A stretch of 64,000 bases of DNA from assembly GCA_020425605.1 (NCBI GenBank), contig JAGQRH010000003.1, forward strand, positions 75,011 to 139,010. The letters run 5' to 3'. The stretch is from Planctomycetota bacterium. Lineage in GTDB: Bacteria; Planctomycetota; UBA8742; UBA2392. The position numbers were made by a program, and so were the translations under genes. How positions within the stretch are numbered: position 1 is the stretch's first letter; the number at the start of each line of letters is the position of its first letter. Of this stretch, positions 570 to 48,567 are shown in pieces. The notes beneath the pieces were generated by a model. The model made no database searches and had not been told where the DNA came from. It worked only from the letters and a program-made list of their open reading frames with translations.

Positions 570-3137
570 TTACTTGCTCTCTGCAGTGCTGGCCTTGCCT
601 CCGGGTGTTACCGGGCTTGAAGGTTTGGGCTCAGGTGTCTCGCGGTCCGGCGGTGTATCGATCGGCTTGCGCGGCGGCGTACCGATCAGCGGCAATGCTG
701 CGCGTTTCAGGAACAGGATGGCGAACGCAATGCTGACCGGGTCGGCCGTGAACTCACGAACGCTCTCTTTGTCTTCGTGCATCAGGTAGCTCCAGCTTCC
801 GTCAGCAGCCTGCAGTGCGATCAGGCTTGCCGCACCAATTGCGTACCAGTCGAGGCCGTTGCCCCACAGCGGGCTGCCGGTCAGCACGCCTGCGCGCTCG
901 ACCGAGTACAGGTTGTAGTAGGGGTCGCGATGGATGCCGTTGTGCCTGACAAGGTAGCGGTCACCATCGAGCGTATAGTAGTTCTTCGACATCCAAAGCT
1001 GCGCGCCGAGGATCGACGTGTCGATCTTGCGTGCGAAGTCGTCATCCAGCAGACCGCGAACCTTCAGCTCGTCGCGGCAGATCGCAAGGCTGGAAACGCC
1101 GCCCGCCGTCATGGACAGCCCGAGGTTGCCATCACCCTGGTAGTCCCAGCCGCCTGCCGCGATCTCGTCGTCATGAACCTCAACCTCGCCCTTCTTGTTG
1201 AGCGTGCGGTATCGGTAGGACACGCGGCCGTTGCTGCCATTGACCGTGTAGCGTTTGGTCAGCCGCGCAGCCTCGGACTTGAACAGCTTGGGATCGACAT
1301 CGGCGCCGAGCAGGCTTGCCGCCTTGAGCCCAAGCACCCCGAACTGGCTGCACGAGTTGTCCGCATACGAGCCGTCCGCAGTACCTGCAATCGCGCCGTA
1401 GCCGAAGCCGGACCTGTTGTGCGCCGAGTCGAGACACTTCAGCATCCAGTCAATCAACTTGGCGTGACGCGGCTCGATTCGCTTCCTCAGCTCGATCTGG
1501 GCCTGCTTGAAGGCATCGGGAGAGTCCGGCGTGAGGATTCCGCAGTCGCGTTCTTCGGCTTCGTAGAATTTCTGGAAGCACATCAACACGAGAGCATCGC
1601 TGTAGCTGTGCCCGGGCACGTAGTTCATGCTCAGCCATTCCATGCCGCGTTTGACTTCGTCGCTGTCGCGTTTCCAGTCGCCGTGCATCAGTGCCAGCAG
1701 CGACGCGGCGGTCTGCGCGCCGGGGAATATGTACGACTGGAAGCTGCCGTCCTTGGCCTGAATGCTGATGAGGTATTCGCAGCCGTGATGGATGGCGCGA
1801 TCGGTTGCCTCGTCGGTCACGTCCATGAGCGGCGTACCTGCCTCCAGCGAAGCCGCGTGAATCACCGAAAACGCGTACATCTCACGGCCGACTTCCGACA
1901 ACTTGGCCTTGGCGAGTAGCGGCTCTGTGCAGCAGGCCAATCCGCCGCCGAGGGCGATGCAGCTCAGCGCGGTATCTGCAATCACGCGACCGACCCGGGA
2001 ATCCACGTCCGGCGTCAGGCCGAGTGCATAGCCCATGTGGTCGTCGACGCGCACGGCGCCGGTCGGGTCTATGTCGCTGACGGCCAGCCCGGTGATCGCC
2101 TTGCGCCATGCCTCGGGCTCGCGCCCCTGCGGTGCCCAGGCCGGATTCAGCATGCCCAGCACGGCCAGACGCGAGCCTGTGATTGGCTCGGTCGGGTATT
2201 CGCGCTCGAGGCGCAACAGCGTCGCGGGCACGCATTCGACCGCCTTTTCGATGCCGCGGATCACGGAGTCTTTAAGCGTGCCTTCCGGGGCGGCCATCGC
2301 AACGCTTGCCGCGGCCATCGCGAGCAAGTTGGTGTCGAAATCGAAGCTGGCATCAATCGCACGGCCGCCACCGCACCAGCCGCGCTTCTTGCTGACGGCG
2401 CCGCACAGGTTCCGCAGGGCCGTTTCCCAGACGTGCTCGTTGATCTTGATCTCCATCGCGAGCGCAAAGCGGCAGATCAGACCGCGCCAGAGATGATTGG
2501 CGAACCACATCGGTCGAATCACGCTGCCGACGATCAACGGTGAGTCCGCATCGGTGCCGGTGCGCACGCGCATCGCGAGATCCACCAGGTCGCGGGCCCG
2601 CTCCAGTATCTGATCGCGGCTTTCAAGCTCCGGGCGCTGCAGGGCCGAGACGCAGATGCCAAGCTCGATTCCGAAGTTCGCCAGAGACATGTCTGCATCC
2701 GGCAGACCATTGCACAGGAAGCGCTCAAGCTGCATGCGTACGGCATCTGTCGTGGCCATGCCGGACTGCAGGACGGCCCAGAGCCGCAGGTTCGACAGGA
2801 CGGTCATCGGGGCGAGCTCGTCGCGCTCAAAGGGCGTGAGTGCGCACGGCACGTTTGCGCGCCCGAAGAGCAGCTCAAGCTCATACTCCGGTCGAAGCAG
2901 GTAGCGCAGATTGTTGACCAGCATCGCTCGCTCGGGCGTGATTTCTCCAGTCACCTGCTGGGCATGCTCGACTTCTTTCTCGGTGAACTCACGAATCGTC
3001 GGTGCCGGGGCGGCCGGCTTGTGTGCGGGTGCCTGCTGGTCCTTGTCCTTGGCGCGCACCACCGGCCCGGTTGCCGCGACGAATGCCGCAAGGCAGGCGA
3101 TGAACAGAAGGACAGAAGCTGGGACACGTGGCGGCAT
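570..3137 (-). CDS. exported alpha/alpha-toroid (prenyltransferase/squalene-cyclase-repeat-like) protein, paralog 2, Pro-rich tail
   Basis: ORF track 570..3269(-). Start moved to ATG 3137 (MPPRVPASVLLFIACLAAFVAATGPVVRA, signal/anchor; GAGG about 12 nt upstream). Q-x-x-DGS[FW] repeats (IQAKDGSF, LQAADGSW), DNSCSQFGVLGLKAASLLGA, and AILFLKRAALP near the C-terminus. Tail PPRKPIDTPPDRETPEPKPSSPVTPGG. Confidence 0.85.
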   Translation of the reverse strand: MPPRVPASVLLFIACLAAFVAATGPVVRAKDKDQQAPAHKPAAPAPTIREFTEKEVEHAQQVTGEITPERAMLVNNLRYLLRPEYELELLFGRANVPCALTPFERDELAPMTVLSNLRLWAVLQSGMATTDAVRMQLERFLCNGLPDADMSLANFGIELGICVSALQRPELESRDQILERARDLVDLAMRVRTGTDADSPLIVGSVIRPMWFANHLWRGLICRFALAMEIKINEHVWETALRNLCGAVSKKRGWCGGGRAIDASFDFDTNLLAMAAASVAMAAPEGTLKDSVIRGIEKAVECVPATLLRLEREYPTEPITGSRLAVLGMLNPAWAPQGREPEAWRKAITGLAVSDIDPTGAVRVDDHMGYALGLTPDVDSRVGRVIADTALSCIALGGGLACCTEPLLAKAKLSEVGREMYAFSVIHAASLEAGTPLMDVTDEATDRAIHHGCEYLISIQAKDGSFQSYIFPGAQTAASLLALMHGDWKRDSDEVKRGMEWLSMNYVPGHSYSDALVLMCFQKFYEAEERDCGILTPDSPDAFKQAQIELRKRIEPRHAKLIDWMLKCLDSAHNRSGFGYGAIAGTADGSYADNSCSQFGVLGLKAASLLGADVDPKLFKSEAARLTKRYTVNGSNGRVSYRYRTLNKKGEVEVHDDEIAAGGWDYQGDGNLGLSMTAGGVSSLAICRDELKVRGLLDDDFARKIDTSILGAQLWMSKNYYTLDGDRYLVRHNGIHRDPYYNLYSVERAGVLTGSPLWGNGLDWYAIGAASLIALQAADGSWSYLMHEDKESVREFTADPVSIAFAILFLKRAALPLIGTPPRKPIDTPPDRETPEPKPSSPVTPGGKASTAESK

Positions 3138-3292
3138 GGCGGGTGAACCTCGGGGAGTGCTTTGCGAAGCTGATGGGAGGATACGCCATGACCTCACCAC
3201 TCCATAGGGTATTGCGAATTCGCCATTGCCGATCAGCGGCCACATACTGACTTTGTCGCGTTTCCGCATAGGGCGCCGGATGGCAAATGGAC

Positions 3293-3345: not shown

Positions 3346-5973
3346 CTACTCGCCGCTCTTCTCGGCCTTTTCCTTTTCGGCTTTCTCCGCTTCTTCTTTC
3401 TCGCGCTTCTTGTCTTCAGGACCCTTGGTGACCGGGTTCTTGGCGGCTTCCTTGCGCTTGGCTTCCTCTTCCGCCTCCTTCTCGCGCTTCTTGTGTTCCG
3501 TAATCACCGGCATGGCGGCGCGCTTGAGAAACAGGATGGCGAGGCAGGTGTTGACGATCTGCTGGTCGCTGCGGCCGGGCATCGCCGCGTAGGCTGTGCC
3601 CCAGCTGCCGTCCATGTTCTGGTTGTCGATCAACCCGTCCGCGCCGATCTGGTACCAGTCGACTTCGCCCTCAAGCTGGCGAATGCCGGCCAGCACGCAG
3701 CCGCGCTCGACAGAATACAGGTTGTAGAAAATGCCCCACCCATCGCTGGTCGCGACGGCAAGCGGGCTGGTGGGCCCGTTGATGATCTCGGCCTTGTAGT
3801 AGTTGCGACGCACCCAGCCTTCGGCCCCGCGGATTGTGAGCCCGATCTTCATGGCGAGCGCCTCCTTCAGCTTGCCGCGGACCTTCAGCTCATCCATGCA
3901 GATCGTGAGGCTTGAGATCCCCGCGGCCGTCAACTGCATCGACGCGCCACTGGTTGTGCCGCACATGTAGCTCCAGCCCCCCGGCTTGATCTTGTCCTTG
4001 TAGCTAGACCGGGTCTTGCGTGACTTGCGCTCGTCGTCGTCGCCTTCGCGATCATCGGGGTTGTGCACGTACTCGACCGGCTCGTATTGCGGGTCTTCCC
4101 AGTACTGGCCGATCAGCCGCTCGGCCTCCGCCTGGAATACGTTCGTGTTCAGCTCAGCGCCCAGCAGGCTCGCGGCCTTATAGCCGAGCACCGCATACTG
4201 GCTGCATGAATTGTCGCTGTGGTTGGTGTCGCCCTTCTTCGGCGCGCGCATGTAGCCCCAGCCGCCGCGCTTGCCGCCGACATTGGCTTCGTCGAGGAAC
4301 GCCACCAGGTTCTTGATGAACACAGCGTGTTCTTTCTTGAGACTGCCCCAGACCTTGCCGCGGGCCTCTTCAAATTCCCTGGCGTTCTCGATGTACAGGA
4401 TGCCGGCTTCTCGCTGCTCCGGTGCGTAGTACTTCTGCATGCACATCAACATGGCCGCCACGTCGTACGTCGAGCCGCGGGAAGCCGCGCCGTCCCCGAC
4501 CATCCACTCGATGCCCTTCACTATGGCCGGATCGTCGCGCGCCACTCCGCCGTGCATCATCGCCAGCAGGCAGTAGGCAGAGTTTCCCGGGCTGTTCGAA
4601 TAGACGCCCGGGAAGCTGCCGTCGGGTTTCTGGGTGCTCTTCAGGAATGCCGCGCCGTCTTCAATGGCATAGTTCACGCGGCTGTCGAAGTCGCCACCGC
4701 CGCGCCGTGCCTTCTCAGCGTGCAGCACGGCCAGCGCGTACATGATGCGTCCGACGGATGCCAGTTCCCGCTCGGCCAGGGGGCCATTGCCTTCCGCCAG
4801 CAATCCGCCACTGAGCCCGATGCAAGCGAGGGCTGTCTCACAGGTACCGGATTCGCCGCGTGACCAGCCGGTCTCGGAGATGCCAAGCTCGCGCGCGAGT
4901 GTGTGGCGCGAGTAGATGCAGCCGGATGGCTGCAATAGTGCAACGCCGGAGCGCACCAGGGCCGCACGCCAGGTTTCGGGTGTCTGGCGCTCGGGCGCAT
5001 AATCCCTGGGCAGGCTGCTCAACAACATCAGGCGCGAGCCCGTCCACTTCTCGTTGACGTAGTCCTTGTCGAGTCGCGTCAGGATCTCCGGCACGGTCTT
5101 CAACTTCTTGCCGATGTTTCGCAGCGTGGTCGAGTTGATCGTGTCCTCGGGGGCGTTGTTCGCGAGGCCAAGAGCGATCAATGAAGCGTAATTGGTATGC
5201 AGGTCGCCGCTCGCGCCGTTGAAGACGCGTTTGTAGCTGGTCCAGCCGCGATCTTTCACGTGCGCGGCGACCAGTGCGCGCAGGTCCTTTTCCCACTGCT
5301 TGTCGTCGAGCTTGAACTCCAGCTCGACCGCAACACGCATGATCAGTGAACGCCACATCATGTTCGCAAACCACTGCGGCGCGATGTAGTCGCCCTGGAT
5401 CAGCCGGGAGCGGTCTGAAGTCGCGGCCGTGAAGTCATTGGAAACGCCCACCAGCGTTTCGGCCTTCTTCCTTATGTCGTCACCGCGGCCGAGCTCCGTG
5501 TGCGCCAGTGCGGCACGCAGGGTCAGGATGCGAATTGCGATCGGCGCCAGGTTGTCCGAGTCTTTCTCTGTGGGGTTGGGCGTAGCCAGCAGGCGATCCA
5601 GCATGCGCTCACTGGAGGCGGTGGTCGCCATGCCCGACTGAAGCAGTGCCCAGAACCGCAGGGTTGACAGCAGATCGAGCGGCCCCTCAGACTTTTCCTC
5701 GAACGGTGGCAGCGGGCAGGGCTGGTAGCGCCGGCCTTTCATCAACTCGACTTCAAAGGCCGGGCGGAGCAAGTATCGCAAGCCGTTGAACAGCGTCTGC
5801 TGCTCGGTATCGAGCGTGAGGCGCAAATCGTCGGCCGCCTTGATTTCTTCGGGCGTGAACTCGCGCGGCTGATCAGCATCTGCAGGCGCGTCATCCGCGC
5901 GCACGCCCAGGCTGCCGGCGCACATCGCGCACAGCAGGGCGACAGTCAGGCATGTGTTTCGGATCTTCAGCAT
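3346..5973 (-). CDS. exported alpha/alpha-toroid (prenyltransferase/squalene-cyclase-repeat-like) protein, paralog 1, Lys/Glu-rich tail
   Basis: ORF track 875 aa. Signal peptide MLKIRNTCLTVALLCAMCAGSLGVRADD. Motifs QKPDGSF, NQNMDGSW, DNSCSQYAVLGYKAASLLGA, AILFLKRAAMP. Collinear with 570..3137. Tail KKREKEAEEEAKRKEAAK...EKAEKEKAEKSGE. Confidence 0.9.
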   Translation of the reverse strand: MLKIRNTCLTVALLCAMCAGSLGVRADDAPADADQPREFTPEEIKAADDLRLTLDTEQQTLFNGLRYLLRPAFEVELMKGRRYQPCPLPPFEEKSEGPLDLLSTLRFWALLQSGMATTASSERMLDRLLATPNPTEKDSDNLAPIAIRILTLRAALAHTELGRGDDIRKKAETLVGVSNDFTAATSDRSRLIQGDYIAPQWFANMMWRSLIMRVAVELEFKLDDKQWEKDLRALVAAHVKDRGWTSYKRVFNGASGDLHTNYASLIALGLANNAPEDTINSTTLRNIGKKLKTVPEILTRLDKDYVNEKWTGSRLMLLSSLPRDYAPERQTPETWRAALVRSGVALLQPSGCIYSRHTLARELGISETGWSRGESGTCETALACIGLSGGLLAEGNGPLAERELASVGRIMYALAVLHAEKARRGGGDFDSRVNYAIEDGAAFLKSTQKPDGSFPGVYSNSPGNSAYCLLAMMHGGVARDDPAIVKGIEWMVGDGAASRGSTYDVAAMLMCMQKYYAPEQREAGILYIENAREFEEARGKVWGSLKKEHAVFIKNLVAFLDEANVGGKRGGWGYMRAPKKGDTNHSDNSCSQYAVLGYKAASLLGAELNTNVFQAEAERLIGQYWEDPQYEPVEYVHNPDDREGDDDERKSRKTRSSYKDKIKPGGWSYMCGTTSGASMQLTAAGISSLTICMDELKVRGKLKEALAMKIGLTIRGAEGWVRRNYYKAEIINGPTSPLAVATSDGWGIFYNLYSVERGCVLAGIRQLEGEVDWYQIGADGLIDNQNMDGSWGTAYAAMPGRSDQQIVNTCLAILFLKRAAMPVITEHKKREKEAEEEAKRKEAAKNPVTKGPEDKKREKEEAEKAEKEKAEKSGE

Positions 5974-12616: not shown

Positions 12617-15256
12617 ATGAACCTCGCAGCCAAACTGGCAGTACCCATTCTTCTATCGTTCGCGGGCGCGCTGTCCGCCCAATACACGAGGACGGAAACA
12701 ACCGCCACCTATGTCCAGAGAACCGGAACCTCGATCGCGGGACAGGAGTTGTACGTAAGTGGCATCGACGACAGCGCACTGCTGGTGCAGTTGCCGTTCG
12801 ACTTCCAGTACTTCGATCGCGTGTACCGCAGTTGCTGGATCAGCTCAAACGGGCGGGTCTGCTTCAACACCGACAACGCGACGACATTCTCTGCACCGCC
12901 GAACCTGACGCCCTCGGTCGGCAGCAACTACACCGATACGATATTTGCCATCGGCGGCGACCTCTATGCGCGCACGGAGGGCATCTACAGCACGCTTGGC
13001 GCGTACAGCGAAAGTGGGCGCGTTGTGCTGCAGTGGACGAATGTCTCCTTCTTCAGTGGCATGCGCTGCAGCTACCTGAACTTCCAGGTGCACCTGCTGT
13101 CCAACGGCAACGTCGAAATGCACTACGGGCCTGAGAACGTCATTCCCAACTATTCACACAACATCCCCTTCGCCTCCGGCATGGTCAACTTTGACGGCTC
13201 AGCCTCCGTGTTCGGATTCGGCAACACAACGTCACAGCAGACCACGCGTCCCGTCGCCAATACTCTGGTGACGCTGGCACTCACAGCATCGCCCGCAAAC
13301 ACGGTGACGATTAACCAGAACCCGATGCCGCTGCGCCGCTTTGTGCCGGCACCGGCTACGGACTTGCCGGTGCTTTCATTCAAGCTGGTCCGCTCGGGCA
13401 TGGGCGCAATGGTGACAGAGCTGGACTTCAACCACGCGGACTTCGCCGGTGACGGCAATCCGGTCACGCTCAAACTGGTCAAGGACACGGGCACCATCGG
13501 AAGCTACGACGGCGAGGCAGCCATCGGCGCGCTGGCGACCATGGGCGGCAACACCAGCGTCACGGGCCTCACGGAGGACCTGACCAGTGTCGCGTCCGCG
13601 AACTACCTGCTGGTCGCCAGCTACGCCACGCTGTCAGTGGTCTCACAGTCGGGCTTCTACTGCGGCAGCGGGATGCCTGCCTCGATGACCGGCAGCGCGA
13701 TTTCCAATCGGATCGCCCTCGCGCCCCAGGGCATGGCGTGGTTTGCGGGCTCGATTCCGAATTCGATCCGCCCGGCGGCCACAGTTGGATCGACGCACCA
13801 GCGATTGATGACCTTTTCGATCCAGCAGGACGCGGACTCACCTTCGTACAGCCTGACGCAGATGAGCTTTGGACTGACACTCACGGGCGTGACCCTGGCC
13901 GACATAGACCAGCTGCAACTCTGGCGTGATGCCGGCACGCCCGGCGAATGGGATGCGTCAGACACACTCATTAGCACGGTCACCTCGGTCTCGACCACAA
14001 ACCTCTTCACCGGATTGTCCGAAGCCACAACGAAATCCGGCACCGCGTACATTGTAACCGCTGACATCAGCGCATCGCTTGCGGCCTCGGGAACCTTGAA
14101 ACTGACCTACAACCTCCCGTCATCGGGTACGCCGTTCCCCACCGGCTCCTCCACGGGCGAGCTTTTGCAGGTGGCCGGCCCCGGCTCAACGCTGATCGTG
14201 CGTGACGTGCCGGACTACGCTCTGACCAGCGTGACGGCGGCGGTTTCCGAAATCGGCGTCCACGCCAATGTCTTCGAACTCATTGCCGGCTCGGGCAGCG
14301 GTACGGTCACCCAAATCGACTTCTCCGAAACTCAGAGCAGCAACTCGCAGGTAACGGACGCCCGCCTCTATCAGGACACAGGCACGAGCCCGGGGCGGTA
14401 CGACACGGGCGACACCCCCATCCCGGCCACGGTCACGCTTGGCGCAGCCACGATCAGCATGAGCCTCACCACCCCGCTCACCGTTACTGGCGTGGCAAAG
14501 CGATTCGTGCTGGTTGTCGACATCGCCTCGAACGCCAGCAACGACATGCGCTTTGACGTCGGCGGTATGTCCATCACGTCCAATTTCGTCAACCAGACTG
14601 GCGCATCCACCGGCACCTTTCTGGACCAGCGCGCCGGCAGCGCAAACGGCGTGAACCTGTCCGCAGCATTGCTGACCACCAGCGCGAACATCTACACCAA
14701 CAAGCTCGTGATTCTTGGTCAGGCGCGCTGCCAGGCGCGTGGCACGGGCGGCGCAGCGCCGACACTCCATTTCGTGCTGGGCGACAACCCGTGCGGGCGC
14801 GGCGCAAACTGCCGCATCTTTTTTCAAGTCTGGCTCGAGGGGGCGGGCCCGCTTGGCGCGCTCGATGCGACCGACGTTGAATGCTACGGCTTTTACTCAA
14901 CGAACGGCTCCGTCCAGTTTCAGCTTGGAAGCACGCCGTTCGTCCCGGCCGGCGTAACCCGCGATTTTCTCATCGTCGCACGCCACATCGCGGCGCCGGG
15001 CGTGGATATTGGAGGCCCGTTCGACGTGCACTTCGGCGGATACAGTGCCGGCACGGACACGGCATGGTTTCCGGCCGGTACGCCGGCGCCTGCCGCTGCA
15101 ACGCTGATCAACACGCGCAAGTCCTCCAACCCGGGCGGGGGCGGCGGATCTGACGGTGGCTGCACCACCGGCCAGGACGGAAAGAACTGGCTGGCGTGGC
15201 TCGCCGTGCTAGCGGCAGCGGCGGCCGTCACACGCCTGCGTCGCGCCAGGTCGTAA
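12617..15256 (+). CDS. large secreted surface protein: NIDO-like N-domain, repeated ~115-aa modules, Cys-type C-terminal sorting signal
   Basis: Signal peptide MNLAAKLAVPILLSFAGALSA|QYT. LPFDFQYFDRVYRSCWISSNGRVCF matches the NIDO-type F-x-F-x-[FY]-[FG]-x-x-Y-x-x-x-x-[IV]-S-x-NG motif. Three related modules follow (..VTELDF..LKLVKDTGT..; ..LTQMSF..LQLWRDAGT..; ..VTQIDF..ARLYQDTGT..). Tail GGGGGSDGGCTTGQDGKNWLAWLAVLAAAAAVTRLRRARS. Confidence 0.9.
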   Translation: MNLAAKLAVPILLSFAGALSAQYTRTETTATYVQRTGTSIAGQELYVSGIDDSALLVQLPFDFQYFDRVYRSCWISSNGRVCFNTDNATTFSAPPNLTPSVGSNYTDTIFAIGGDLYARTEGIYSTLGAYSESGRVVLQWTNVSFFSGMRCSYLNFQVHLLSNGNVEMHYGPENVIPNYSHNIPFASGMVNFDGSASVFGFGNTTSQQTTRPVANTLVTLALTASPANTVTINQNPMPLRRFVPAPATDLPVLSFKLVRSGMGAMVTELDFNHADFAGDGNPVTLKLVKDTGTIGSYDGEAAIGALATMGGNTSVTGLTEDLTSVASANYLLVASYATLSVVSQSGFYCGSGMPASMTGSAISNRIALAPQGMAWFAGSIPNSIRPAATVGSTHQRLMTFSIQQDADSPSYSLTQMSFGLTLTGVTLADIDQLQLWRDAGTPGEWDASDTLISTVTSVSTTNLFTGLSEATTKSGTAYIVTADISASLAASGTLKLTYNLPSSGTPFPTGSSTGELLQVAGPGSTLIVRDVPDYALTSVTAAVSEIGVHANVFELIAGSGSGTVTQIDFSETQSSNSQVTDARLYQDTGTSPGRYDTGDTPIPATVTLGAATISMSLTTPLTVTGVAKRFVLVVDIASNASNDMRFDVGGMSITSNFVNQTGASTGTFLDQRAGSANGVNLSAALLTTSANIYTNKLVILGQARCQARGTGGAAPTLHFVLGDNPCGRGANCRIFFQVWLEGAGPLGALDATDVECYGFYSTNGSVQFQLGSTPFVPAGVTRDFLIVARHIAAPGVDIGGPFDVHFGGYSAGTDTAWFPAGTPAPAAATLINTRKSSNPGGGGGSDGGCTTGQDGKNWLAWLAVLAAAAAVTRLRRARS

Positions 15257-15420: not shown

Positions 15421-18400
15421 ATGCGATCGCTGATACTTGTTGCGATAACGTTAAGTCTGTTGTCCGGCGTTATTTCCGCGCAATACACCGCAACTCTTCA
15501 AGGCGGTACCAGCGAGTACACCAACCGCGACATCAGCGGCCCGCTGAACAACCGTTACCGCGAGTTGAACAGCTACTTCGTTGAGAACGTGCCGATTGGT
15601 TTTGAATTCACATACTTCGGTGAACGGTACACACACGTTCAGGTCTGCAGCCGCGGCTTCATTGGCTTTGACCCCCGGAGTGCCTACCCGGCCAACCCCT
15701 ACCCGCCAAGCAGCAGTGGGACGCCCCTGCCGGACTCGCCCGCGCCGAACAATGCGATTTTCGTGGCGTGGTCGGGCAACTATCCATCCAGCAATAACAC
15801 GAAGGGGCTGTTTTGGGAAACGCTCGGCACAGCGGGTAGTCGTGAGTTCCGGGTTCAGTATCGTTTCTGGGGTTTCAGCGCGATCGTCAGCCTGTTCGAA
15901 GGCAGCAACGTAATTCAGGTCGTGTTTGGGCCCTGGTATTCGGTGTATGCTGGCTACTGCGGGATAGAGAACAAGGGGGGCACGATCGGGATCGCTTCCC
16001 CTAGCGGTTGGTACAACTTCCCGCTGCCGACGGCGGGAACGCTGATCACCTACACACCTTCCAGCGCCCCGGAAGTGGACCTTGCCAACCCGGACGACGC
16101 GGCTGTCAGCGACGGCGCAACTGACACTGTTTTCCTCGGGATCCCTGGTACTCCATTCGCGCGAACCTACACAATCCGAAACCTTGGCGACCAGAACATC
16201 AACCTCAGCGGCTCGCCCATCGTCAACGTGGTTGCCCAGAACAATTGCACGGCATCTGTCACTGCTCAGCCCGGGCTCACAACCATCACACCGGGCGGGT
16301 CGACCACTTTCACGGTGCAGGTAACCCCCTCCGGCTCGGGGGCGTTCAGCACAGACCTGTTGTTCCAATGCAATGACGCCAACGAGAACGTCTACAACTT
16401 CAGCATCGGCGGCACGGCGGTAACCGGCGGCGCCCCGGAAATCGAATTGCAAGACCCCAACGGCTTTGGAATCTCGAACGCGGGCAGCTATCGCCACTAT
16501 CCGTTCCAGAGCGACCTGGTGAACTTCGCTCTCACATTCACCGTTCGCAATTCGGGCGGTGCTGCACTCACGTTCAGCGGATCTCCGGTGGTAACGACTG
16601 CCTCGCCCGCTGGCTGCACTGCCACCGTTACGACCGACCTGCCGGCTTCGCTTGCACCGGGGTCAAGCACGACCTTCGTAATCACAATCGATTCCGACAC
16701 AACAAGCACTCAGTATGACTTCTCGGTTTCGTTCAATTGCAACGATGCGGATGAAGCAAGCTATCAGTTCCAGGTGAATGGTTGGGCATATGATAACGGT
16801 CAGCCGTACGTTGTGCGTGCTGGCAGGCTCGTTGACGACAATCAGCTGGACGACGTCGTGACAGGAACAGTCTCGGGTATCCCGACCATCCTGACCTATC
16901 AAGTCTGGAATTCAGGATACGCGAACGTGAACTTGCAAGGTGGGCCTACAGTCAACATCAGCGGGGCTCAAAACTGCGTTGCCACAGTCACGATGTCGCC
17001 TGCTTCGCCGGTGAGCGGACAATCCAGCACCAGCTTCAGCATCTCTGTCACGCCCACAACGCCCGGTGCCTGGAGTTTTGATGTCGACTTCGACTATGAC
17101 TACGTTTCATCGCCGGCCAGCTACGACTTCACTGTCAGCGGCACGGCCGACCCGCAAGCTCCGGAGATGGACCTGCAACGCCCGGCCGCCACGTCGATCC
17201 AGGACGGAGGCATTGATGCAACGACCGGAAGCGTGGCCGGCTCACCAATGGTCCTTACCTACACCATTGAAAACACCGGCACCGCGACGCTGGTGCTTCC
17301 GGGCACGCCGCGTGTGGCGATCGCCAACCAGAACAACTGCGCGGCCTCGGCTACCTCGCAGCCGCCAATGAACATCGGTGCGGGCGTCCAAACCACATTC
17401 GTCGTCTCTGTAACGCCGTCGACGTCGGCGTTCTGGAGCTTCCAGTTCAGCATCGACAACAACGATGCCAACGAGAACCCATACAACATCACGGTCACCG
17501 GCACGGCAGGCTCTTCCGCCGGCCCTGAGATCGAAGTCGAGGGTCCCGGTCCAGTGTCGATCAGCTCAGGGGGCGGCTTCAATGCCGGTTCCGCGCCTAT
17601 CAGTACGCCCACAAACGTCGTGTTTACGGTACGGAACATCGGCTCGGCGACGCTGAACCTGACCGGTACGCCGGCCGTGCAGGTTACGGGCGCCAACAAC
17701 TGTAGCGCAAACGTGACGGTCAACCCCGCAACGGCAGTCACGCCGTCCGGCAACACGACATTCACCGTTCAATATACCGTCACATCCGCCGCGGCATTTG
17801 ATTTCTCGCTCAGCATTGCCAACGACGACAGCAACGAAAACCCGTACACGTTCACCGTGAATGGAACCGGCACCGCGGCACCGGAGCCGGAGATGGACGT
17901 CGAGGACAGCGTCCCCCAACCTATCGCAGTCGGCGCGAACTACTCGGTGGGCAGCATTCCCGCAGGCAGCCCAAGCATGGTAAGCCTGACCATCCGCAAC
18001 ACCGGCAGCGCCACCCTGACCCTGAGCGGCACGCCCGCCGTACAGCTTTCGGGCCAAAGCAACGTGACGGCATCCGTCACCACCCAGCCCTCTTCCAGCA
18101 TCGGCGCGGGCGCGAACTCGACGTTTACTGTGAGTGTCAACCCGAACGCATTCGGCGCGTTCAGCTTTGGCGTGAGCATTGCCAACAACGATTCGACGGA
18201 AAACCCGTACACGTTTACGGTCGTCGGGACCGGGCTGTCACCGGAGATCGCCGTCGAGGACAGTGGCAGCAACCCTGTGGCGGACAGCGGCGGCTTCCTT
18301 GCCGGAAACGTACCTGTCGGCGGCGACACCGACTTCGTGTTTTCGGTGTTCAACACGGGCAACGTCGACCTCACTCTCTCCGGTACACCTGTAGTGCAGA

Positions 18401-20868
18401 TCCAGTCAGCCAGCAACGTGAGCGCGGTACTGTTCGCCGCGCCGTCAAACCCGGTTGCTCCGGCCGGCTCGACAAACTTCACGCTGCGCGTGAACCCGGT
18501 CGCAGCCGGCGCATTCAGCTTTGACGTCGTCATCGCCAACAACGATATCGACGAAAGCCCTTACAACTTCTCGTTCAGCGGGACCGGCACGGAGCCGGAG
18601 ATGGATGTAGACGACCCGACCGCGGCGTCGCTTGCCAGTGGCAGCACATATGCAGCCGGCAACGTGACGCTCGGGTCTCCGGCCAATCTGACGTTCTCCA
18701 TCCACAACAATGGCGCGGCAAATCTCAACCTGACCGGCACGCCCGCGGTACAGATCTCTGCCCTGGCCAACGTCAGCGCAAACGTCACCCTGGCGCCGAC
18801 CGTCTCGATCATCCCGACCTCGCAGACGACCTTCACCATCCAGGTCTCACCGGCCGCAGGCGGCGCGTTCAGCTTTGACGTGAGCATCGACAACAACGAC
18901 GCCAACGAGAACCCATACACCTTCAGCGTTACCGGCACCGGTGTTCCGCCGGCAACCGCAGAAATGGAGTTGCAGAGGATCGGTGGCTCAGCTGTGGCCG
19001 ACGGCGGCGTCGACAACCTGGGCAACGTGACAACGCTTTCGGCAAACCCGATTGTGTGGCAGATCGACAACGTCGGCACCCTCGCGCTGGCGCTGAACGG
19101 CACGCCGCAGGTTCAGATTTCGTCGGCTACGAACGTCAGCGCGGTCGTCTCGGCGAACCCGTCCGCAGGAGTCGCGCCGGGCGGCAACACGACGTTTACG
19201 ATCAGCGTGCAACCGACGGCGCCCGGCGCGTTCAGCTTCTCGGTCTCGATCCCGAACAATGACCCGAACGAGAACCCATACGGCTTCACGGTCAGCGGCA
19301 CGGGCACCGCGCCGGAGATTCAGATCGAACGCACGGGCGTGATCCTGAGCGGCGCGATTGACGCCATCGGCTCGTTCGCTGTCGGCGCAACCAGCAGCCT
19401 TACTTGGACAATCCGCAACCTCGGCAGCGAAGACCTGCAGTTGACTTCACCCACATCGGTCACGATCAGTGGGCAGGTAAACTGCACGGCGTCCGTCAGT
19501 TCCATTCCCGCAGGGACCATCACGGCCGGCTCCACGACTACGTTTGTCGTTCAGTTCCAGCCGCCGGCATCCGGCGGGTTCAATTTCGTCATCAATGTCG
19601 GCAGCAACGACGCTGATGAGCCGGTCTACACGATCAACGTGCAGGGAACGGCAACCAGTCTTATCCCCCAATTCCAGTTGCGCGAGGTATTCACCGGAAC
19701 ACAGATCTCCAACACCGGCGGGTACAACATAGGCAACCTGCAGGCAGGCCACAGTCGCGACACGTTCCTGAGAATCACCAACGCCGGCTCGGCCGTTCTG
19801 CTGCTTACCGGCACGCCGCAGGTACTGCCGGGAACGACAACCGGCTGCAGCATGAGCATTCTCAGCCAGCCATCCAGCGCTGTCATCTGGCCGGGTGCCA
19901 GTGACAACTTCGTGGTGCGGATCACCGCGTTGAGCGGCGCAGGATTCAACGCTGCACTGCAGATCCCAACCAATGACGGGGCGGTCGGCACGTTCACGTT
20001 CAACTTGCTCGGCACCGGGCTGGCACCGGAGATCGACCTGCAACGCCCGCTCGGCGCATCCATCCCATCCGGCACGAACAGCGCCGTCGGAAACGTTCCC
20101 GTCGGGAAGTCTGTTCGCCTTCAATGGGCGATCGCCAACACCGCGACGGGGGACCTGCATCTGACCGCGCCTGCTTCTATCAACGGCACGCCGACGAACT
20201 GTGCGGCCGTGCTTCATCAGCCGCTCTCGACAACGATCCCCGCAGGTGGTGTCGGAGTACTGTCCGTCGACGTAATCGCGTTCGCCGCCGGTGCGTTCAG
20301 TGTGCCGGTAATGGTCGAGAGCGACGACGCCAACGAAGCATCATACACGTTCACGATTACAGGCACGGCCACGGCACTGACTCCAGTACTCTTCAGCCAC
20401 CTGAAAGTTGACTTTGGGAACGTGCCGGTAAACACCGTGACGCGACGAAGGGTCGCCGTAACTAACCAAGGCACGCAGGCGGTTTCGATCAGCACGATCT
20501 CACTCTCGGCGCCGTCCGGAGGCTACGCCTACGTCAGTTCGAATCCCGTCGGTGTCGTCCCATCGTTGCCGGCCGCTGGAGTTGCAATCGTGCCGGGCGA
20601 CACGATCGAATTGCTGTTCGACTTTGCCGCCGGATCACTGCCGGGCATAACAAAGAATGCCACGCTGACCTTCACGTCCAACAGCGGCGGAACGGCCGGT
20701 ACGCAGACGATTGTGCTGCTCACGGCACAATCCGTCTCGCGGCCGGACGTTGGCGAGAACAAAGACGAGAACTGCAGCACCAGCGAAAGCCCCGGCATTA
20801 CGTGGCTCGCGCTCTTGGCGGCGCTCGCGGCACTGGCAACGGCTTCCGCGATGCGCCGGCGCGCATGA
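15421..20868 (+). CDS. giant secreted surface protein: NIDO-like N-domain, 13 tandem Ig-like (choice-of-anchor-D / ASH-like) repeats, Cys-type C-terminal sorting signal
   Basis: Signal MRSLILVAITLSLLSGVISA|QYT. VPIGFEFTYFGERYTHVQVCSRGFIGF. Repeats start with [AEGS]PE[IM][DE][LV] and end with NDxxENPY-F-V-GTG. Tail NKDENCSTSESPGITWLALLAALAALATASAMRRRA. GGAG RBS. Confidence 0.92.
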   Translation: MRSLILVAITLSLLSGVISAQYTATLQGGTSEYTNRDISGPLNNRYRELNSYFVENVPIGFEFTYFGERYTHVQVCSRGFIGFDPRSAYPANPYPPSSSGTPLPDSPAPNNAIFVAWSGNYPSSNNTKGLFWETLGTAGSREFRVQYRFWGFSAIVSLFEGSNVIQVVFGPWYSVYAGYCGIENKGGTIGIASPSGWYNFPLPTAGTLITYTPSSAPEVDLANPDDAAVSDGATDTVFLGIPGTPFARTYTIRNLGDQNINLSGSPIVNVVAQNNCTASVTAQPGLTTITPGGSTTFTVQVTPSGSGAFSTDLLFQCNDANENVYNFSIGGTAVTGGAPEIELQDPNGFGISNAGSYRHYPFQSDLVNFALTFTVRNSGGAALTFSGSPVVTTASPAGCTATVTTDLPASLAPGSSTTFVITIDSDTTSTQYDFSVSFNCNDADEASYQFQVNGWAYDNGQPYVVRAGRLVDDNQLDDVVTGTVSGIPTILTYQVWNSGYANVNLQGGPTVNISGAQNCVATVTMSPASPVSGQSSTSFSISVTPTTPGAWSFDVDFDYDYVSSPASYDFTVSGTADPQAPEMDLQRPAATSIQDGGIDATTGSVAGSPMVLTYTIENTGTATLVLPGTPRVAIANQNNCAASATSQPPMNIGAGVQTTFVVSVTPSTSAFWSFQFSIDNNDANENPYNITVTGTAGSSAGPEIEVEGPGPVSISSGGGFNAGSAPISTPTNVVFTVRNIGSATLNLTGTPAVQVTGANNCSANVTVNPATAVTPSGNTTFTVQYTVTSAAAFDFSLSIANDDSNENPYTFTVNGTGTAAPEPEMDVEDSVPQPIAVGANYSVGSIPAGSPSMVSLTIRNTGSATLTLSGTPAVQLSGQSNVTASVTTQPSSSIGAGANSTFTVSVNPNAFGAFSFGVSIANNDSTENPYTFTVVGTGLSPEIAVEDSGSNPVADSGGFLAGNVPVGGDTDFVFSVFNTGNVDLTLSGTPVVQIQSASNVSAVLFAAPSNPVAPAGSTNFTLRVNPVAAGAFSFDVVIANNDIDESPYNFSFSGTGTEPEMDVDDPTAASLASGSTYAAGNVTLGSPANLTFSIHNNGAANLNLTGTPAVQISALANVSANVTLAPTVSIIPTSQTTFTIQVSPAAGGAFSFDVSIDNNDANENPYTFSVTGTGVPPATAEMELQRIGGSAVADGGVDNLGNVTTLSANPIVWQIDNVGTLALALNGTPQVQISSATNVSAVVSANPSAGVAPGGNTTFTISVQPTAPGAFSFSVSIPNNDPNENPYGFTVSGTGTAPEIQIERTGVILSGAIDAIGSFAVGATSSLTWTIRNLGSEDLQLTSPTSVTISGQVNCTASVSSIPAGTITAGSTTTFVVQFQPPASGGFNFVINVGSNDADEPVYTINVQGTATSLIPQFQLREVFTGTQISNTGGYNIGNLQAGHSRDTFLRITNAGSAVLLLTGTPQVLPGTTTGCSMSILSQPSSAVIWPGASDNFVVRITALSGAGFNAALQIPTNDGAVGTFTFNLLGTGLAPEIDLQRPLGASIPSGTNSAVGNVPVGKSVRLQWAIANTATGDLHLTAPASINGTPTNCAAVLHQPLSTTIPAGGVGVLSVDVIAFAAGAFSVPVMVESDDANEASYTFTITGTATALTPVLFSHLKVDFGNVPVNTVTRRRVAVTNQGTQAVSISTISLSAPSGGYAYVSSNPVGVVPSLPAAGVAIVPGDTIELLFDFAAGSLPGITKNATLTFTSNSGGTAGTQTIVLLTAQSVSRPDVGENKDENCSTSESPGITWLALLAALAALATASAMRRRA
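16066..20730 (+). repeat. 13 tandem in-frame domain repeats (~105-120 aa each) inside the giant gene
   Basis: Repeat boundaries in the translation: APEVDL, APEIEL, QPYVVR, APEMDL, GPEIEV, EPEMDV, SPEIAV, EPEMDV, TAEMEL, APEIQI, IPQFQL, APEIDL, TPVLFSHLKVDFG. Conserved core [TS]-[LV]-x-N-x-G-x-x-x-L-x-L-[ST]-G-[TS]-P and ..F-S-[FV]-x-[IV]-x-N-N-D-x-x-E-N-P-Y. There is DNA-level similarity between units (for example AACGAGAACCCATAC at about 17470, 18905 and 19270). Confidence 0.85.
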
Positions 20869-21202: not shown

Positions 21203-23959
21203 ATGCGCGTTTACGCTGCCAGCATCATGTCTGTGCTAATGGTCGGGGCCGCACTTTGCGGCACGGTCCAGGCACAGTCCTATGCCCGGACGGAGACCAC
21301 AGGAACGTACAACGAACTTTCCGGTACTGGGTCACCCAAGGCAATCTGGACGGATGACAGCTACGACGACGGCAGCAGATTCGTGCCATTGCCATGGGAC
21401 TTTCCGTACTTCGACCGCACGTACAAAGCGTGCTGGATGAACACCAACGGACGCGTTCAGTTTTACGACTATGAGCCGGATGACTACGACATCTCCGACC
21501 TTACTCCGACGGTGACACAGCCGGACGTCACCGAAACGATCAGCGTGTTCGCAGGCGATATCACGGGGCACACCACCCGCACACGCGACGGCGCCTACAC
21601 TGTTCACTACCTGTCAGACCGTGTCGTCTTGCAGTGGCGTGACGTGACAATGTACGATTCAGACGAGTTCGGCACGCGCCGCAACTTCCAGTGCCAGATT
21701 TTCCCGAGTGGCGAAATCCGCCTCATCATGGGGCCGAGCAGCTTTGTGATCGTCAACAACCCGGCGGACTACGTCAGTGGCATCGTCAACTTTGATGGCA
21801 CCGAGGCCTATGCCGGGTTCGGAAACACGCTGGTCACGCAGACTACCCCACCCGCCAGCGGAACGACCGTATCACTCGTCCCCAGCGGCTACACCCAGGC
21901 TAATGGAGTGGTGCTGGGCCCTCGGTACGCTGCGGACTACACACCCGGCGTATTCTATGAAGGCGCGACGGATGTCGTTGTGGGACAGTTCTGCCTGCAG
22001 GCCAATGGTACCGGCGGGACAGTCACTGACATAAACATCCAGCACGCCGGCCCCGGAACCAGCAGCGTCACTCTCAAGCTGTACGCCGACGCCGGTACGC
22101 TCGGCGTGGTCGACGGCTCAGACACGTTGCTTGGCTCCACGACCATGGCCGCCAACGACTCGACATTTTCGTCACTGACCGAAGTGCTCGACGGGACCAC
22201 GCCCCTGCGCAACTACCTGCTCGCGGTGGACCTGACCTCGATCTCTGAATCCTTCGAAACTCATTTCTACATGAACCTGGAGAACGACTCGGACATCACC
22301 ACCACTGGCGCCGCCGTCTGGGGTGGCTACTTCGACGGGGACGGCCCACCGGTCAATCCGAGGTTCCTGTTTCTGGAAGGCCCGTTTGTCGAATACAACG
22401 TATCGTCCGCGACCAATCAGTACCTCCCCATCGTTGCCGGCGGCGCTGAAGTCGCAGTTGCAAGCTTCGAGGCAAAGCTGCGAGAAACAAACGCCGCAAC
22501 TGTGGAGTTGAACAGCTTCGACGTCGACCTGAGCCTCAGCGGGCTGGTTATTGGAGACATCGCCCTGGTAAGGCTGTATCGCGACGCCGGAACCGTCGGC
22601 GTCCTCGACGGAAGCGACGTGCAGGTGGGAAGCGTGGCCAACCCCTCCAGCACCACCGTGACGTTTTCGTCTCTGGCCGAGGCAATGACCGCAGCCGGCC
22701 AGGACTACCTGGTCACCATAATGGTAGGTACTTCGTTCACAACAATCGGCGGATCGGCGGCAACCATTGCGCTGGCAGTCAGCGGAAGCGGCGAGACAAT
22801 GACCCCGGCCGCCGCTTTCTGGCAGTACTGCAATTTCGACACCGGCTCGACCTTCCAGGTATTGCCAAATGCAGCGATGCTGATGCTACGGCCAACGGTG
22901 GCCACACAATTCGCGCCACCCTCGTTCACAGGCCCCGACTACAACCTGCCGGTGCCACAAGGTGCAACGGACATTCCTGTTGTCCATTTCACATTGGAAG
23001 CGTCCAGCGGTGCACAGACGGTGACCGGGCTTGATTTCAGCGGCGACGGCACCGAAGTCAGTGCGGCCAACCTCTACCTCGACAACGGCACGACTCCGGG
23101 TCGTGTCGACGCGGGTGACACTTTTGTGGCAACAGCCTCCACGCTGAGTGCCACCAACGTTACCTTCACCGGCCTCACGGAGACGATCACCACGACCGCG
23201 TCGCGCTACCTGCTGGTGCTGGACGTATCCGGGACTGCTACTACCGGGACCGCTCTCCAGTACACCCTCGATCCGACCGGAGTGACGAGTTCGCTTACGA
23301 CGCTGGGCCAAACCTGCCTCGGCACGGTGACGCCGGTTGACATGACGGCGGATGGTGTCGACGTCACGGTAAATCTGGTCACTACAAGTGCATCGGTCTA
23401 CAACAATACCCGGGTACTCATCGCGACCTGTCAGCAGACTCCACGCGGCGCCGGCGGGGACCCGGCCTTCCTGGTCTTCCGAATCCTGAGTGCCTACGGT
23501 GGAGTCTCATCGGGATCGCTTGGCCTGGAGTGCTACCTTGAGGGCGCCGGCCCGGTCGGGCAACTCGATTCGACAGACACCCTCATGACGTTCAGCGACG
23601 GTGACCTGTACCCCGAAAACTACACCTACTGGGGCGGCGAGGACACCGGCTGGGTTACTACCACCCGAAACTTCCTGGTGTTCTTGCGCGTGAGCCCCTA
23701 CGCGTGCGACTTCAACGGCCGTTTCGAAGTCGTCTTCACCGGCCTATATGGCGGGACCGAGCCGGCCTTTGCATCCGAGCCCAACTATCGCCTGATCGGC
23801 GGCACGGCCTTGATTGGCAACAAGACCAGCAAGGGCGGCGGCGGCGGCAGTAGCGGCGGCTGCAGTACCTCCGGCGGGCCTGGAAACAATTGGCTTGCAT
23901 GGCTGGGCGCGTTGGGCGCGATGGCGGTGGTCACGCGCCTTCGCCGCTCACGCGGCTAG
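21203..23959 (+). CDS. large secreted surface protein, paralog of 12617..15256 (NIDO-like N-domain, repeated modules, Cys-type C-terminal sorting signal)
   Basis: Track ORF 21173..23959. ATG at 21203 follows GGGAGAG. Signal MRVYAASIMSVLMVGAALCGTVQA|QSY. LPWDFPYFDRTYKACWMNTNGRVQF. Modules ..VTDINIQH..LKLYADAGT.., ..LVRLYRDAGT.., ..VTGLDFSG..ANLYLDNGT... Tail GGGGGSSGGCSTSGGPGNNWLAWLGALGAMAVVTRLRRSRG. Confidence 0.9.
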   Translation: MRVYAASIMSVLMVGAALCGTVQAQSYARTETTGTYNELSGTGSPKAIWTDDSYDDGSRFVPLPWDFPYFDRTYKACWMNTNGRVQFYDYEPDDYDISDLTPTVTQPDVTETISVFAGDITGHTTRTRDGAYTVHYLSDRVVLQWRDVTMYDSDEFGTRRNFQCQIFPSGEIRLIMGPSSFVIVNNPADYVSGIVNFDGTEAYAGFGNTLVTQTTPPASGTTVSLVPSGYTQANGVVLGPRYAADYTPGVFYEGATDVVVGQFCLQANGTGGTVTDINIQHAGPGTSSVTLKLYADAGTLGVVDGSDTLLGSTTMAANDSTFSSLTEVLDGTTPLRNYLLAVDLTSISESFETHFYMNLENDSDITTTGAAVWGGYFDGDGPPVNPRFLFLEGPFVEYNVSSATNQYLPIVAGGAEVAVASFEAKLRETNAATVELNSFDVDLSLSGLVIGDIALVRLYRDAGTVGVLDGSDVQVGSVANPSSTTVTFSSLAEAMTAAGQDYLVTIMVGTSFTTIGGSAATIALAVSGSGETMTPAAAFWQYCNFDTGSTFQVLPNAAMLMLRPTVATQFAPPSFTGPDYNLPVPQGATDIPVVHFTLEASSGAQTVTGLDFSGDGTEVSAANLYLDNGTTPGRVDAGDTFVATASTLSATNVTFTGLTETITTTASRYLLVLDVSGTATTGTALQYTLDPTGVTSSLTTLGQTCLGTVTPVDMTADGVDVTVNLVTTSASVYNNTRVLIATCQQTPRGAGGDPAFLVFRILSAYGGVSSGSLGLECYLEGAGPVGQLDSTDTLMTFSDGDLYPENYTYWGGEDTGWVTTTRNFLVFLRVSPYACDFNGRFEVVFTGLYGGTEPAFASEPNYRLIGGTALIGNKTSKGGGGGSSGGCSTSGGPGNNWLAWLGALGAMAVVTRLRRSRG

Positions 23960-29480: not shown

Positions 29481-29540
29481 GGTAAGCCTCCGGTTTGAGC
29501 AACACACAGACTCTAACACGCCGATTGCACAGCAAAGCCA

Positions 29541-29580
29541 AAATGCACAGTGCATTTAGTGAATTTTTGGCGAATTCACT
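29541..29580. promoter_or_regulatory. palindromes in the AT-rich divergent promoter region
   Basis: AAATGCAC-A-GTGCATTT (29541-29557) is immediately followed by AGTGAATT-N7-AATTCACT (29558-29580). A related AAAATGCATTTT lies at 29697-29708. All sit in the ~330-bp AT-rich spacer between the Kelch gene and gpmI. Confidence 0.3.
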
Positions 29581-44429: not shown

Positions 44430-44438
44430 GGGCAAGCC

Positions 44439-48516: not shown

Positions 48517-48567
48517 CCCGGGAAGCGTAACCCCGCCGGGACCCAAAGGAAACGCTGAGTTTGCGCG

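Follow-up and report, generated by a model that had tools for sequence, protein, structure and literature searches.

A Cys-containing C-terminal tail on secreted proteins of uncultured Planctomycetota, a probable sorting signal with the architecture of MYXO-CTERM

Introduction

MYXO-CTERM is the prototype of the Cys-containing tripartite signals that are found at the C-terminus of secreted proteins. It is cut in a Cys-dependent manner by MrtX, a CPBP protease, and leads to surface display that depends on the type II secretion system; the tag has been called myxobacteria-specific, and as to which enzyme lipidates its Cys, Lgt was favoured but the question left open (Guo, Haft & Wall 2025, PMC11980579). 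Here we describe a Cys-containing C-terminal tail encoded several times in a 64,000-nucleotide (nt) stretch of DNA (the window) from a Planctomycetota bacterium of the UBA2392 lineage (assembly GCA_020425605.1, contig JAGQRH010000003.1, positions 75,011 to 139,010 of the forward strand; all window positions below are counted from its first letter). We consider it probable that the tail is a tripartite sorting or anchoring signal of which MYXO-CTERM is the prototype, in a distinct and so far unnamed variant of the Planctomycetota.

MYXO-CTERM has been judged to be restricted to Myxococcota, where a GCGC double Cys is frequent, and a survey of more than 14,000 representative proteomes met the myxosortase core model NF040914 in Myxococcota and Bradymonadales alone (Haft 2023, 10.1101/2023.06.07.544157). 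In the same study the myxosortase of M. xanthus was identified by phylogenetic profiling and not by linkage to its substrates. A precedent for lineage-specific variants is given by JDVT-CTERM, by Synerg-CTERM and by CGP-CTERM, each paired with its own CPBP subfamily, and a CPBP enzyme is the partner in all four known tripartite signals of the Cys type (Haft 2023, 10.1101/2023.06.07.544157). Two other C-terminal sorting systems, GlyGly-CTERM and PEP-CTERM, are known in some Planctomycetes (PMC3237569, PMC1569441). Full-text literature searches returned no paper tying MYXO-CTERM-type signals to Planctomycetes.

Results

The window was translated in six frames and passed through a crude filter for a C-terminal run of hydrophobic residues with three or more Arg or Lys after it, among the last residues. 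Four open reading frames (ORFs), and no others in the 64 kb, passed this filter (Table 1). N-terminal Sec signal peptides were present on all four (MNLAAKLAVPILLSFAGALSAQ, MRSLILVAITLSLLSGVISAQ, MRVYAASIMSVLMVGAALCGTVQAQ and MKTLIHTSLLLMTLLATPLVAES), and three of the genes stand in tandem. A layout of the exosortase/rhombosortase/MYXO-CTERM type had been proposed in the initial annotation, and the Cys motif, the transmembrane (TM) helix and the Arg cluster were indeed confirmed in all four proteins. That annotation had also regarded the four tails as one common element. The translations gave each of these tails at its position, and the assignment held for the three tandem genes, the fourth tail, on a Kelch protein, being only marginal.

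A profile built from 60 tails (A4) was used to score the window ORFs. Its training set included the tails of the 1815-amino acid (aa) and 879-aa proteins, which scored 55.8 and 52.9 bits, while the tail of the 918-aa protein was outside the set and its score of 57.9 bits is independent of training. The next-best window ORF reached 6.3 bits, and members of the family score 45-65 bits. Judged by these scores, the three tails are core members of one family, far beyond a generic anchor. The Kelch tail, scored as an isolated peptide with the same profile, which is independent of it, reached only 15.5 bits. It has the same architecture (GCVGG...LSLSLL...RTVRKARRA) without the C-S-T-G...W-L signature. 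A Kelch protein on a syntenic UBA2392 contig (L002:16619-18397, minus strand), which is likely the orthologue, has no C-terminal tail. We concluded that the Kelch tail is a weak, divergent member of the family, and its presence in one protein and absence from the other fits a tail module that was gained and lost on one passenger.

A first profile of 43 positions, made from 19 tails, was run in an exhaustive search of 1.84 billion cluster representatives. It matched 183 protein clusters at E<=1e-3 and nine at E<=1e-10, and the motif, first noticed in four proteins, is thus not limited to them. Among the 150 matches listed, nearly all end at the last residues of the protein, and the carriers range from 38 to 5058 aa. 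A word-indexed search with the tail profile returned only seven short fragments.

From 143 distinct tails the consensus G-G-G-[GD]-D-D-G-G-C-S-T-G was obtained, followed by 5-7 small polar residues, a helix beginning W-[LM]-x-L-L and an R-x-R-R end. The Cys box stands behind a disordered Gly/Asp/Lys linker. Around the Cys, Asp occupies position -3 in 74%, Gly position -1 in 76%, Ser position +1 in 83% and Thr position +2 in 82% of the tails. A Trp is found at +8 to +11 in 73%, and the helix starts there. The distance from the Cys to the C-terminus is narrowly set, with 28-32 residues after the Cys in 84%. The helix core is free of charged residues and Pro in 131 of the 143 tails, and the last 10 residues contain on average 3.5 Arg or Lys. 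A second Cys within four residues of the first was found in none of the 143.

The passengers that carry the tail are mutually unrelated and typical of extracellular or adhesin modules. Among 68 carriers we detected HYDIN/VesB immunoglobulin-like (Ig), He_PIG, DUF1573, P_proprotein, beta-helix, CARDB, LamG, GEVED, FG-GAP, NHL, TIG and cadherin domains. Within a single passenger family the tail is well kept: 13 homologues of the 918-aa protein (P0001-P0013), down to 30% identity, retain the ending GG-C-[ST]-T-[GDS]...N-W-[LM]...R-x-R-R. Mean pairwise identity in this family is 0.48 for the tail versus 0.39 for the body, and the tail is the more similar part in 54 of 66 pairs. Tandem tail genes were also found elsewhere, five consecutive ones in L004:1-14089 and four in L007:415-8000. 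Their products carry LamG, DUF2341/He_PIG or unassigned passengers, and the tails are near-identical within each genome, which suggests that the tail module spread recently among paralogues in these two genomes.

All carriers with a source name come from metagenome-assembled genomes (MAGs) of Planctomycetes/Planctomycetota. The homologues P0001-P0013 are likewise all from Planctomycetes MAGs or metagenomes, and syntenic loci were found in GCA_019636195.1 and in a European Nucleotide Archive (ENA) bin labelled Planctomycetota g__UBA2392. Additionally, a DNA pattern for the tail (G-G-C-[ST]-T, a spacer, W-[LM], 13 codons, R-x-R), with a chance expectation of 0 in the window, was searched against 185,579 species genomes, one genome per species. 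Of 34 matches, 13 are in-frame C-terminal tails from 11 loci in at least 10 MAGs, all of them Planctomycetota, and 20 are out-of-frame chance matches in other phyla. The remaining match is a MYXO-type tail from a deltaproteobacterial MAG, which is without the Trp and scores 5 bits with the A4 profile. As far as seen, the variant is confined to a clade of uncultured Planctomycetota.

Next to the distribution we compared the tails with curated models (NCBIfam release 20). The closest is MYXO-CTERM, TIGR03901, for which the cut-off of version TIGR03901.2 is 20 bits; the invariant Cys had been read in the initial annotation as pointing to MYXO-CTERM, and this was borne out in that the best match, under the cut-off for the full proteins, is to this model. 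As isolated peptides the window tails scored 22.9 (tail 2), 19.3 (tail 3), 12.7 (tail 1) and 12.9 bits (Kelch tail). Among the 60 non-redundant isolated tails, matches at E<=1e-3 were obtained for 19 with MYXO-CTERM (best 1e-7), four with GC_trans_RRR, three with LPXTG_anchor and one with JDVT-CTERM. On the window proteins the last model (NF033191) gave at best 11.2 bits against a cut-off of 27, and no CPBP gene adjoins the tail genes. The GlyGly-CTERM and PEP-CTERM models did not match the isolated tails even at E<=10. In the reverse direction, the authentic MYXO-CTERM tail of TraA reached 7 bits with the A4 profile. The TraA tail (FCCGTTAD...) has a C-x-T-T core similar to that of the tails described here (PMC11980579).

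With LPXTG_anchor (TIGR01167, cut-off 15.9) the window tails scored 10.4-14.5 bits, and Leu-Pro is absent from the tails. Three of the 60 related tails do exceed this cut-off, with up to 21.8 bits, because the x-S-T-G-E box, spacer, helix and basic end mimic LPSTGE; this resemblance could be a mis-annotation trap. The release holds no dedicated model for the tails and none with a known enzyme gave a confident match, and the remark in the initial annotation that the motif could not be named stands. The Prokaryotic Genome Annotation Pipeline (PGAP) names the carriers by their passenger domain only (e.g. LamG, IPT/TIG), and one fragment, P0020, is labelled a MYXO-CTERM protein by the Joint Genome Institute (JGI).

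In seven of eight related lineages a long-form lgt has a tail gene directly upstream, in the same orientation and with a gap of 39-139 nt. The loci were reached in three ways. L007 / L025 and L014 were found via the tails, L039:1916-3632 and L041 via the small tail protein, and L042:629-2678 and L043:888-1808 via Lgt alone; in all of these the gene directly upstream of lgt encodes a small Ig-domain tail protein. Two further loci were also found via Lgt alone. In L045:1-2831, with an Lgt that is 46% identical, the upstream gene encodes an unrelated 506-aa He_PIG protein with a 46-bit tail. In L044 (Lgt 53% identical) the upstream gene is not a tail gene, and a 994-aa protein with a Cys-tail-like end is encoded two genes off. 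In L025:2745-4797 (minus strand), on a 4.12-Mb contig, a 366-aa Lgt is encoded directly 3' of the small tail protein, whose parts are a signal peptide, a single choice-of-anchor-D-like Ig domain and the tail. The tail proteins upstream of lgt usually have about 180-210 aa and a single Ig domain, and they are 30-40% identical to each other or unrelated, while the Lgts of the linked loci are 46-96% identical. A metagenome scan with the Lgt alignment gave two loci only, with a tail gene upstream in both. Downstream of the long-form lgt a TM-anchored protein with CarboxypepD_reg repeats and a PDZ domain is encoded.

The enzyme encoded next to the tail genes is, judged from its sequence, a bona fide Lgt: it matches PF01790 with 151.7 bits and aligns to E. 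coli Lgt (5AZB), with the catalytic motifs GR(I/L)xNF...LWGR and PRHPSQLY kept. The long-form clade consists of about 45 clusters of 350-412 aa with 44-96% identity, below which the scores drop sharply to ordinary Lgts of 260-280 aa. The periplasmic part of the long form includes a stretch of about 70 residues, in place of about 23 in E. coli Lgt. The linkage suggests a bearing on lipidation. Part of the pattern is inherited synteny.

No candidate for the processing enzyme emerged from the window. A CPBP motif search of the window was negative, and a synthetic CPBP consensus matched nothing in the PDB. RseP, of the M50 type with a PDZ domain, is the sole intramembrane protease encoded there (Table 1); as tail protease it was set aside, being judged a housekeeping enzyme. 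A 201-aa protein with five predicted TM helices is encoded a few kb upstream of the tail genes, and it is kept in synteny upstream of tail genes in L001 (7560-8165) and L032. We rejected it as the tail enzyme, since it has no acidic/His catalytic motif and no Pfam family, and a helix-turn-helix regulator lies beside it in L001. As many substrates share one enzyme, a 64-kb window without it is in itself unremarkable.

Several features of the tail-bearing proteins themselves were recorded. The 879-aa and 918-aa proteins are 32% identical over their full length and about 66% identical in their tails. The former is identical to the cluster representative P0031; an exact look-up of this window protein matched no record. 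The family of about 900 aa to which both belong, with members also in L001 and L002, is all-beta, has no Pfam family and is encoded beside ETF-QO in Planctomycete MAGs. Some 90 residues at its N-terminus (Y-T-R-T-E...LPFDFxYFDRxY...NGR) recur weakly in the 1815-aa protein (E=0.001). The latter matches NF012200 (choice_anch_D) with 267 bits over 13 stretches, as well as PF22544 and DUF1573; the choice-of-anchor D domain was defined through its association with alternative C-terminal anchors. The 918-aa protein likely starts at ATG 21203, because its homologue P0001 begins there. In an AlphaFold2 (AF2) model of it, with a mean predicted local distance difference test (pLDDT) of 76, an N-terminal helix is followed by a string of beta-sandwich domains, a disordered Gly/Cys linker (residues 876-899) that holds the Cys, and a terminal helix (897-917). 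Foldseek with this model returned generic Ig strings and integrin-leg-like Ig domains with TM-scores of about 0.15 and no functional lead. The start of the Kelch gene is likely M26, near 29480.

The window has a G+C content of 62-64% throughout and carries housekeeping genes of a Planctomycete-like organism, among them ETF-QO, RuvA, iPGM, PGI, TrkH/TrkA, an XerC/D-type recombinase, TatC, RseP and SulP. Two further gene groups were recorded. At 41289-42374 (minus strand), 42648-43970 (minus) and 44091-46178 (plus) lies a cluster with two fusions of a metallo-beta-lactamase fold and rhodanese, with Gly/Cys-rich ends (…GGSCAAGGGGCSAG, …SGGCSVGGSTGGGCSVQT). One of the fusions adds a YgaP-like TM domain, both neighbour an ArsR-type regulator and a SulP/STAS transporter, and the group looks like a sulfur-handling cluster. 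At 56570-58187 (plus) and 58197-59612 (minus) a gene for an MbnB/TglH/ChrH-type enzyme (DUF692, MNIO) is followed 3' by an overlapping 272-aa ORF, with an EgtD-like histidine methyltransferase beside it. The 272-aa ORF may encode the partner of the DUF692/MNIO enzyme, and the locus could serve a ribosomally made, post-translationally modified peptide (RiPP) or a thiol metabolite.

Table 1. Positions of the tail-bearing genes, their candidate sorting tails and further genes in the window.
Feature	Position	Strand	Remarks
879-aa secreted all-beta protein	12617..15256	+	signal peptide and candidate sorting tail; no Pfam family; paralogue of 21203-23959
Candidate sorting tail 1	15134..15256	+	GGGGGSDGG-C(849)-TTG-QDGKN-WLAWLAVLAAAAAVT-RLRRARS, then stop; Cys codon 15161-15163
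1815-aa secreted protein	15421..20868	+	13 choice-of-anchor D / HYDIN-VesB-like Ig repeats and candidate sorting tail
Candidate sorting tail 2	20746..20868	+	DVGENKDEN-C(1785)-STS-ESPGIT-WLALLAALAALATASA-MRRRA, then stop; Cys codon 20773-20775
918-aa secreted all-beta multi-domain protein	21203..23959	+	ORF opens with TTG at 21173 (ORF 21173-23959); candidate sorting tail at end
Candidate sorting tail 3	23834..23959	+	KGGGGGSSGG-C-STS-GGPGNN-WLAWLGALGAMAVVT-RLRRSRG, then stop; Cys codon 23861-23863
Kelch beta-propeller protein	27732..29555	-	607-aa ORF; Kelch families PF24681, PF13415; divergent Cys/TM/Arg tail
Divergent tail 4	27732..27860	-	KEAGDNAAG-C(575)-VGGNAGEG-LSLSLLALVILGVGL-RTVRKARRA, then stop; Cys codon 27831-27833
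899-aa protein	570..3269	-	N-terminal hydrophobic segment, Lys/Glu-rich C-terminus; no significant Pfam family
875-aa protein	3346..5973	-	N-terminal hydrophobic segment, Lys/Glu-rich C-terminus; no significant Pfam family
201-aa protein, five predicted TM helices	8661..9266	+	upstream of the tail genes
TatC	46729..48546	-	605 aa; TatC domain at residues 216-385 only; long N- and C-terminal extensions
RseP (M50 and PDZ)	51979..54063	-	sole intramembrane protease in the window

Discussion

The tail probably works like MYXO-CTERM, with lipidation of the Cys, intramembrane cleavage and surface display. By analogy with MYXO-CTERM and MrtX, a tail protein would be exported by Sec and held in the inner membrane by its C-terminal helix; its Arg cluster would lie in the cytoplasm, and the Cys would face the periplasm. 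Next, this Cys would receive a lipid, a step for which Lgt is the prime candidate in view of the linkage between tail genes and lgt. Cleavage just behind the Cys by an intramembrane endopeptidase from another part of the genome, most likely a CPBP or myxosortase-like one, would remove helix and Arg cluster, and the lipid-anchored protein would be transferred to the outer membrane or the cell surface.

Several points weigh against this reading. In the full window proteins the MYXO-CTERM model remains below its cut-off, with 16.6 bits for the 1815-aa protein and 14.9 bits for the ORF 21173-23959, and it did not match the full 879-aa and Kelch proteins at E<=1. Motif and helix are set apart by a polar spacer in the tails, and such a spacer is often absent in signals cut by membrane-embedded enzymes (Haft 2023, 10.1101/2023.06.07.544157); the MYXO-CTERM tail of TraA has one as well. 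Since the proteome survey met NF040914 in Myxococcota and Bradymonadales alone (Haft 2023, 10.1101/2023.06.07.544157), a true myxosortase orthologue in Planctomycetota is not a given. In agreement with the initial annotation, which had reported no sorting enzyme in the window, Pfam scans that covered essentially all called window genes and all of the multi-TM proteins were negative for CPBP (PF02517), exosortase, rhombosortase and sortase. Some 335 kb of related Planctomycete sequence flanking tail genes gave none of these enzymes either, CPBP being looked for there by Pfam and by a scan for EExxxR / HxxxN motifs and TM count. This sample is too small for an unlinked single-copy gene to be expected in it, and what follows is no more than that protease and substrates are not in tight linkage. 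The adjacency to lgt could be inherited synteny of one clade in which tail genes abound (four of about 40 window genes), and the long-form Lgt may simply be the housekeeping enzyme. We infer the cleavage, lipidation and surface location of the tail proteins in each case from MYXO-CTERM and MrtX.

The tails might instead be nothing but divergent members of TIGR03901, processed by a true myxosortase orthologue (an NF040914-positive MrtX/MrtC/MrtP), perhaps laterally acquired, the phylum then being the sole novelty. Among the curated models MYXO-CTERM ranks first, one isolated window tail lies above the cut-off, 19 of the 60 tails match well, P0020 bears the label and the core of TraA is similar. 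However, the full window proteins fall short of the model or do not match it, 41 of the 60 tails are missed, none of the 143 tails has the second Cys, and PGAP recognises the carriers by passenger alone. With the A4 profile, moreover, TraA (7 bits) and the deltaproteobacterial tail (5 bits) lie far under the members (45-65 bits), and up to 2022 no occurrence of NF040914 beyond Myxococcota and Bradymonadales had come to light (Haft 2023, 10.1101/2023.06.07.544157). We therefore regard this explanation as unlikely. The same architecture could also be served by another chemistry, the tail being cut by a rhombosortase, by an enzyme like an exosortase, by a site-2 protease or by an intramembrane protease of an entirely new kind. 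This would agree with the lack of a CPBP gene in any locus examined, with the RseP-type M50 protease in the window, with the conserved five-TM protein upstream of tail genes in the window and L001, and with the presence of GlyGly-CTERM and PEP-CTERM systems in Planctomycetes (PMC3237569, PMC1569441). But the models of these two systems found nothing in the tails, RseP is a universal housekeeping gene, the five-TM protein is without a recognisable catalytic motif, and the known Cys-type signals all pair with CPBP (Haft 2023, 10.1101/2023.06.07.544157), which makes a non-CPBP enzyme decidedly unlikely in our view.

Cleavage may not occur at all. A TM helix and a basic cluster suffice for stop-transfer, and no protease was identified, so the helix could stay as a permanent anchor that tethers the proteins to the inner membrane facing the periplasm, the Cys being, say, a disulfide or metal ligand. 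Such an anchor leaves unexplained the invariant Cys in its D-D-G-G-C-S-T-G box and the fixed spacing, and equally the transfer of the module among unrelated passengers, the adhesin-like giants of up to 5058 aa and the choice-of-anchor D proteins; we find it very unlikely. A sortase-type, LPXTG-like signal would be cut by a transpeptidase after the Thr of the x-S-T-G-E box and joined to a wall or glycan acceptor. The spacer is polar as in LPXTG signals and TIGR01167 passes its cut-off on some isolated tails, but in place of Leu-Pro there is the Gly-preceded invariant Cys, the window tails stay below that cut-off, and the window encodes no sortase. The hosts, moreover, are Planctomycetota, which are generally considered diderm, and we give this explanation hardly any weight.

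Within the MYXO-CTERM-like reading that we prefer, the position of the tail genes allows a more specific proposal, which we offer tentatively and hold to be possible, though not probable. The tail may be a mirror image of the lipobox: the long-form Lgt would diacylglycerylate the Cys of the C-terminal C-S-T-G box, and the conserved operon of a tail gene and, behind it, lgt would be the genomic trace of this pairing. If true, the acyltransferase still missing for the MYXO-CTERM class as a whole would be identified, and with it a second, C-terminal route to bacterial lipoproteins; the Planctomycete protease may then not be a myxosortase. The placement of tail genes next to lgt is, as far as we found, the first gene-context clue to the question of the Cys-lipidating enzyme raised earlier (Guo, Haft & Wall 2025, PMC11980579). 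With this clue the question can be put to a direct test, and the linkage bears on the mechanism of the class in general.

Cys-type C-terminal signals had been regarded as limited to Myxococcota and Bradymonadales, apart from a few small variants of particular lineages, and they can now be extended to uncultured Planctomycetota. The signature labels a large and otherwise unannotated set of giant adhesin-like surface proteins that PGAP currently misses. A dedicated hidden Markov model of the tail would improve the annotation of the carrier MAGs and give a clean phylogenetic profile for finding the enzyme.

Comparison with known systems

As in the classical lipobox/Lgt/LspA pathway, small residues (Gly at -1) precede a Cys that sits where a helix that would later be removed meets the periplasm, and lgt is linked here. 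The topology is however mirrored, with the Cys about 30 residues from the C-terminus and N-terminal to a C-terminal helix; there is no [LVI][ASTVI][GAS]C, and LspA in its usual mode cannot be the tail protease. With GlyGly-CTERM/rhombosortase and PEP-CTERM/exosortase the tail shares the many-to-one C-terminal sorting in diderms, and VesB-like Ig and choice-of-anchor passengers are common to them. In contrast to these systems, which do not require a Cys, it has neither a GG motif next to the helix nor PEP.

JDVT-CTERM (enzyme MrtJ), Synerg-CTERM (enzyme MrtS) and CGP-CTERM (enzyme MrtA) (Haft 2023, 10.1101/2023.06.07.544157) resemble the tail in the single invariant Cys, the TM helix and the Arg cluster. 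JDVT-CTERM differs in its DP motif, which the tails lack, and in forming a two-gene cassette with its enzyme, and Synerg-CTERM and CGP-CTERM differ in having no spacer.

The closest likeness is to MYXO-CTERM, with which the tail shares the tripartite signal at the extreme C-terminus, made up of an invariant Cys, a TM helix free of charge behind a spacer, and a cluster of Arg, and the spread, within a genome, over many unrelated secreted surface proteins. It has this architecture, but it falls outside MYXO-CTERM by score, by the missing double Cys and by taxon. Instead of GCGC there is a single Cys in D-D-G-G-C-S-T-G, a conserved Trp opens the helix, the majority of tails lie under the model cut-off and the hosts are Planctomycetota. 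Linkage of the tail genes to lgt, finally, sets the present tails apart from myxobacterial MYXO-CTERM, for which such a linkage is unreported.

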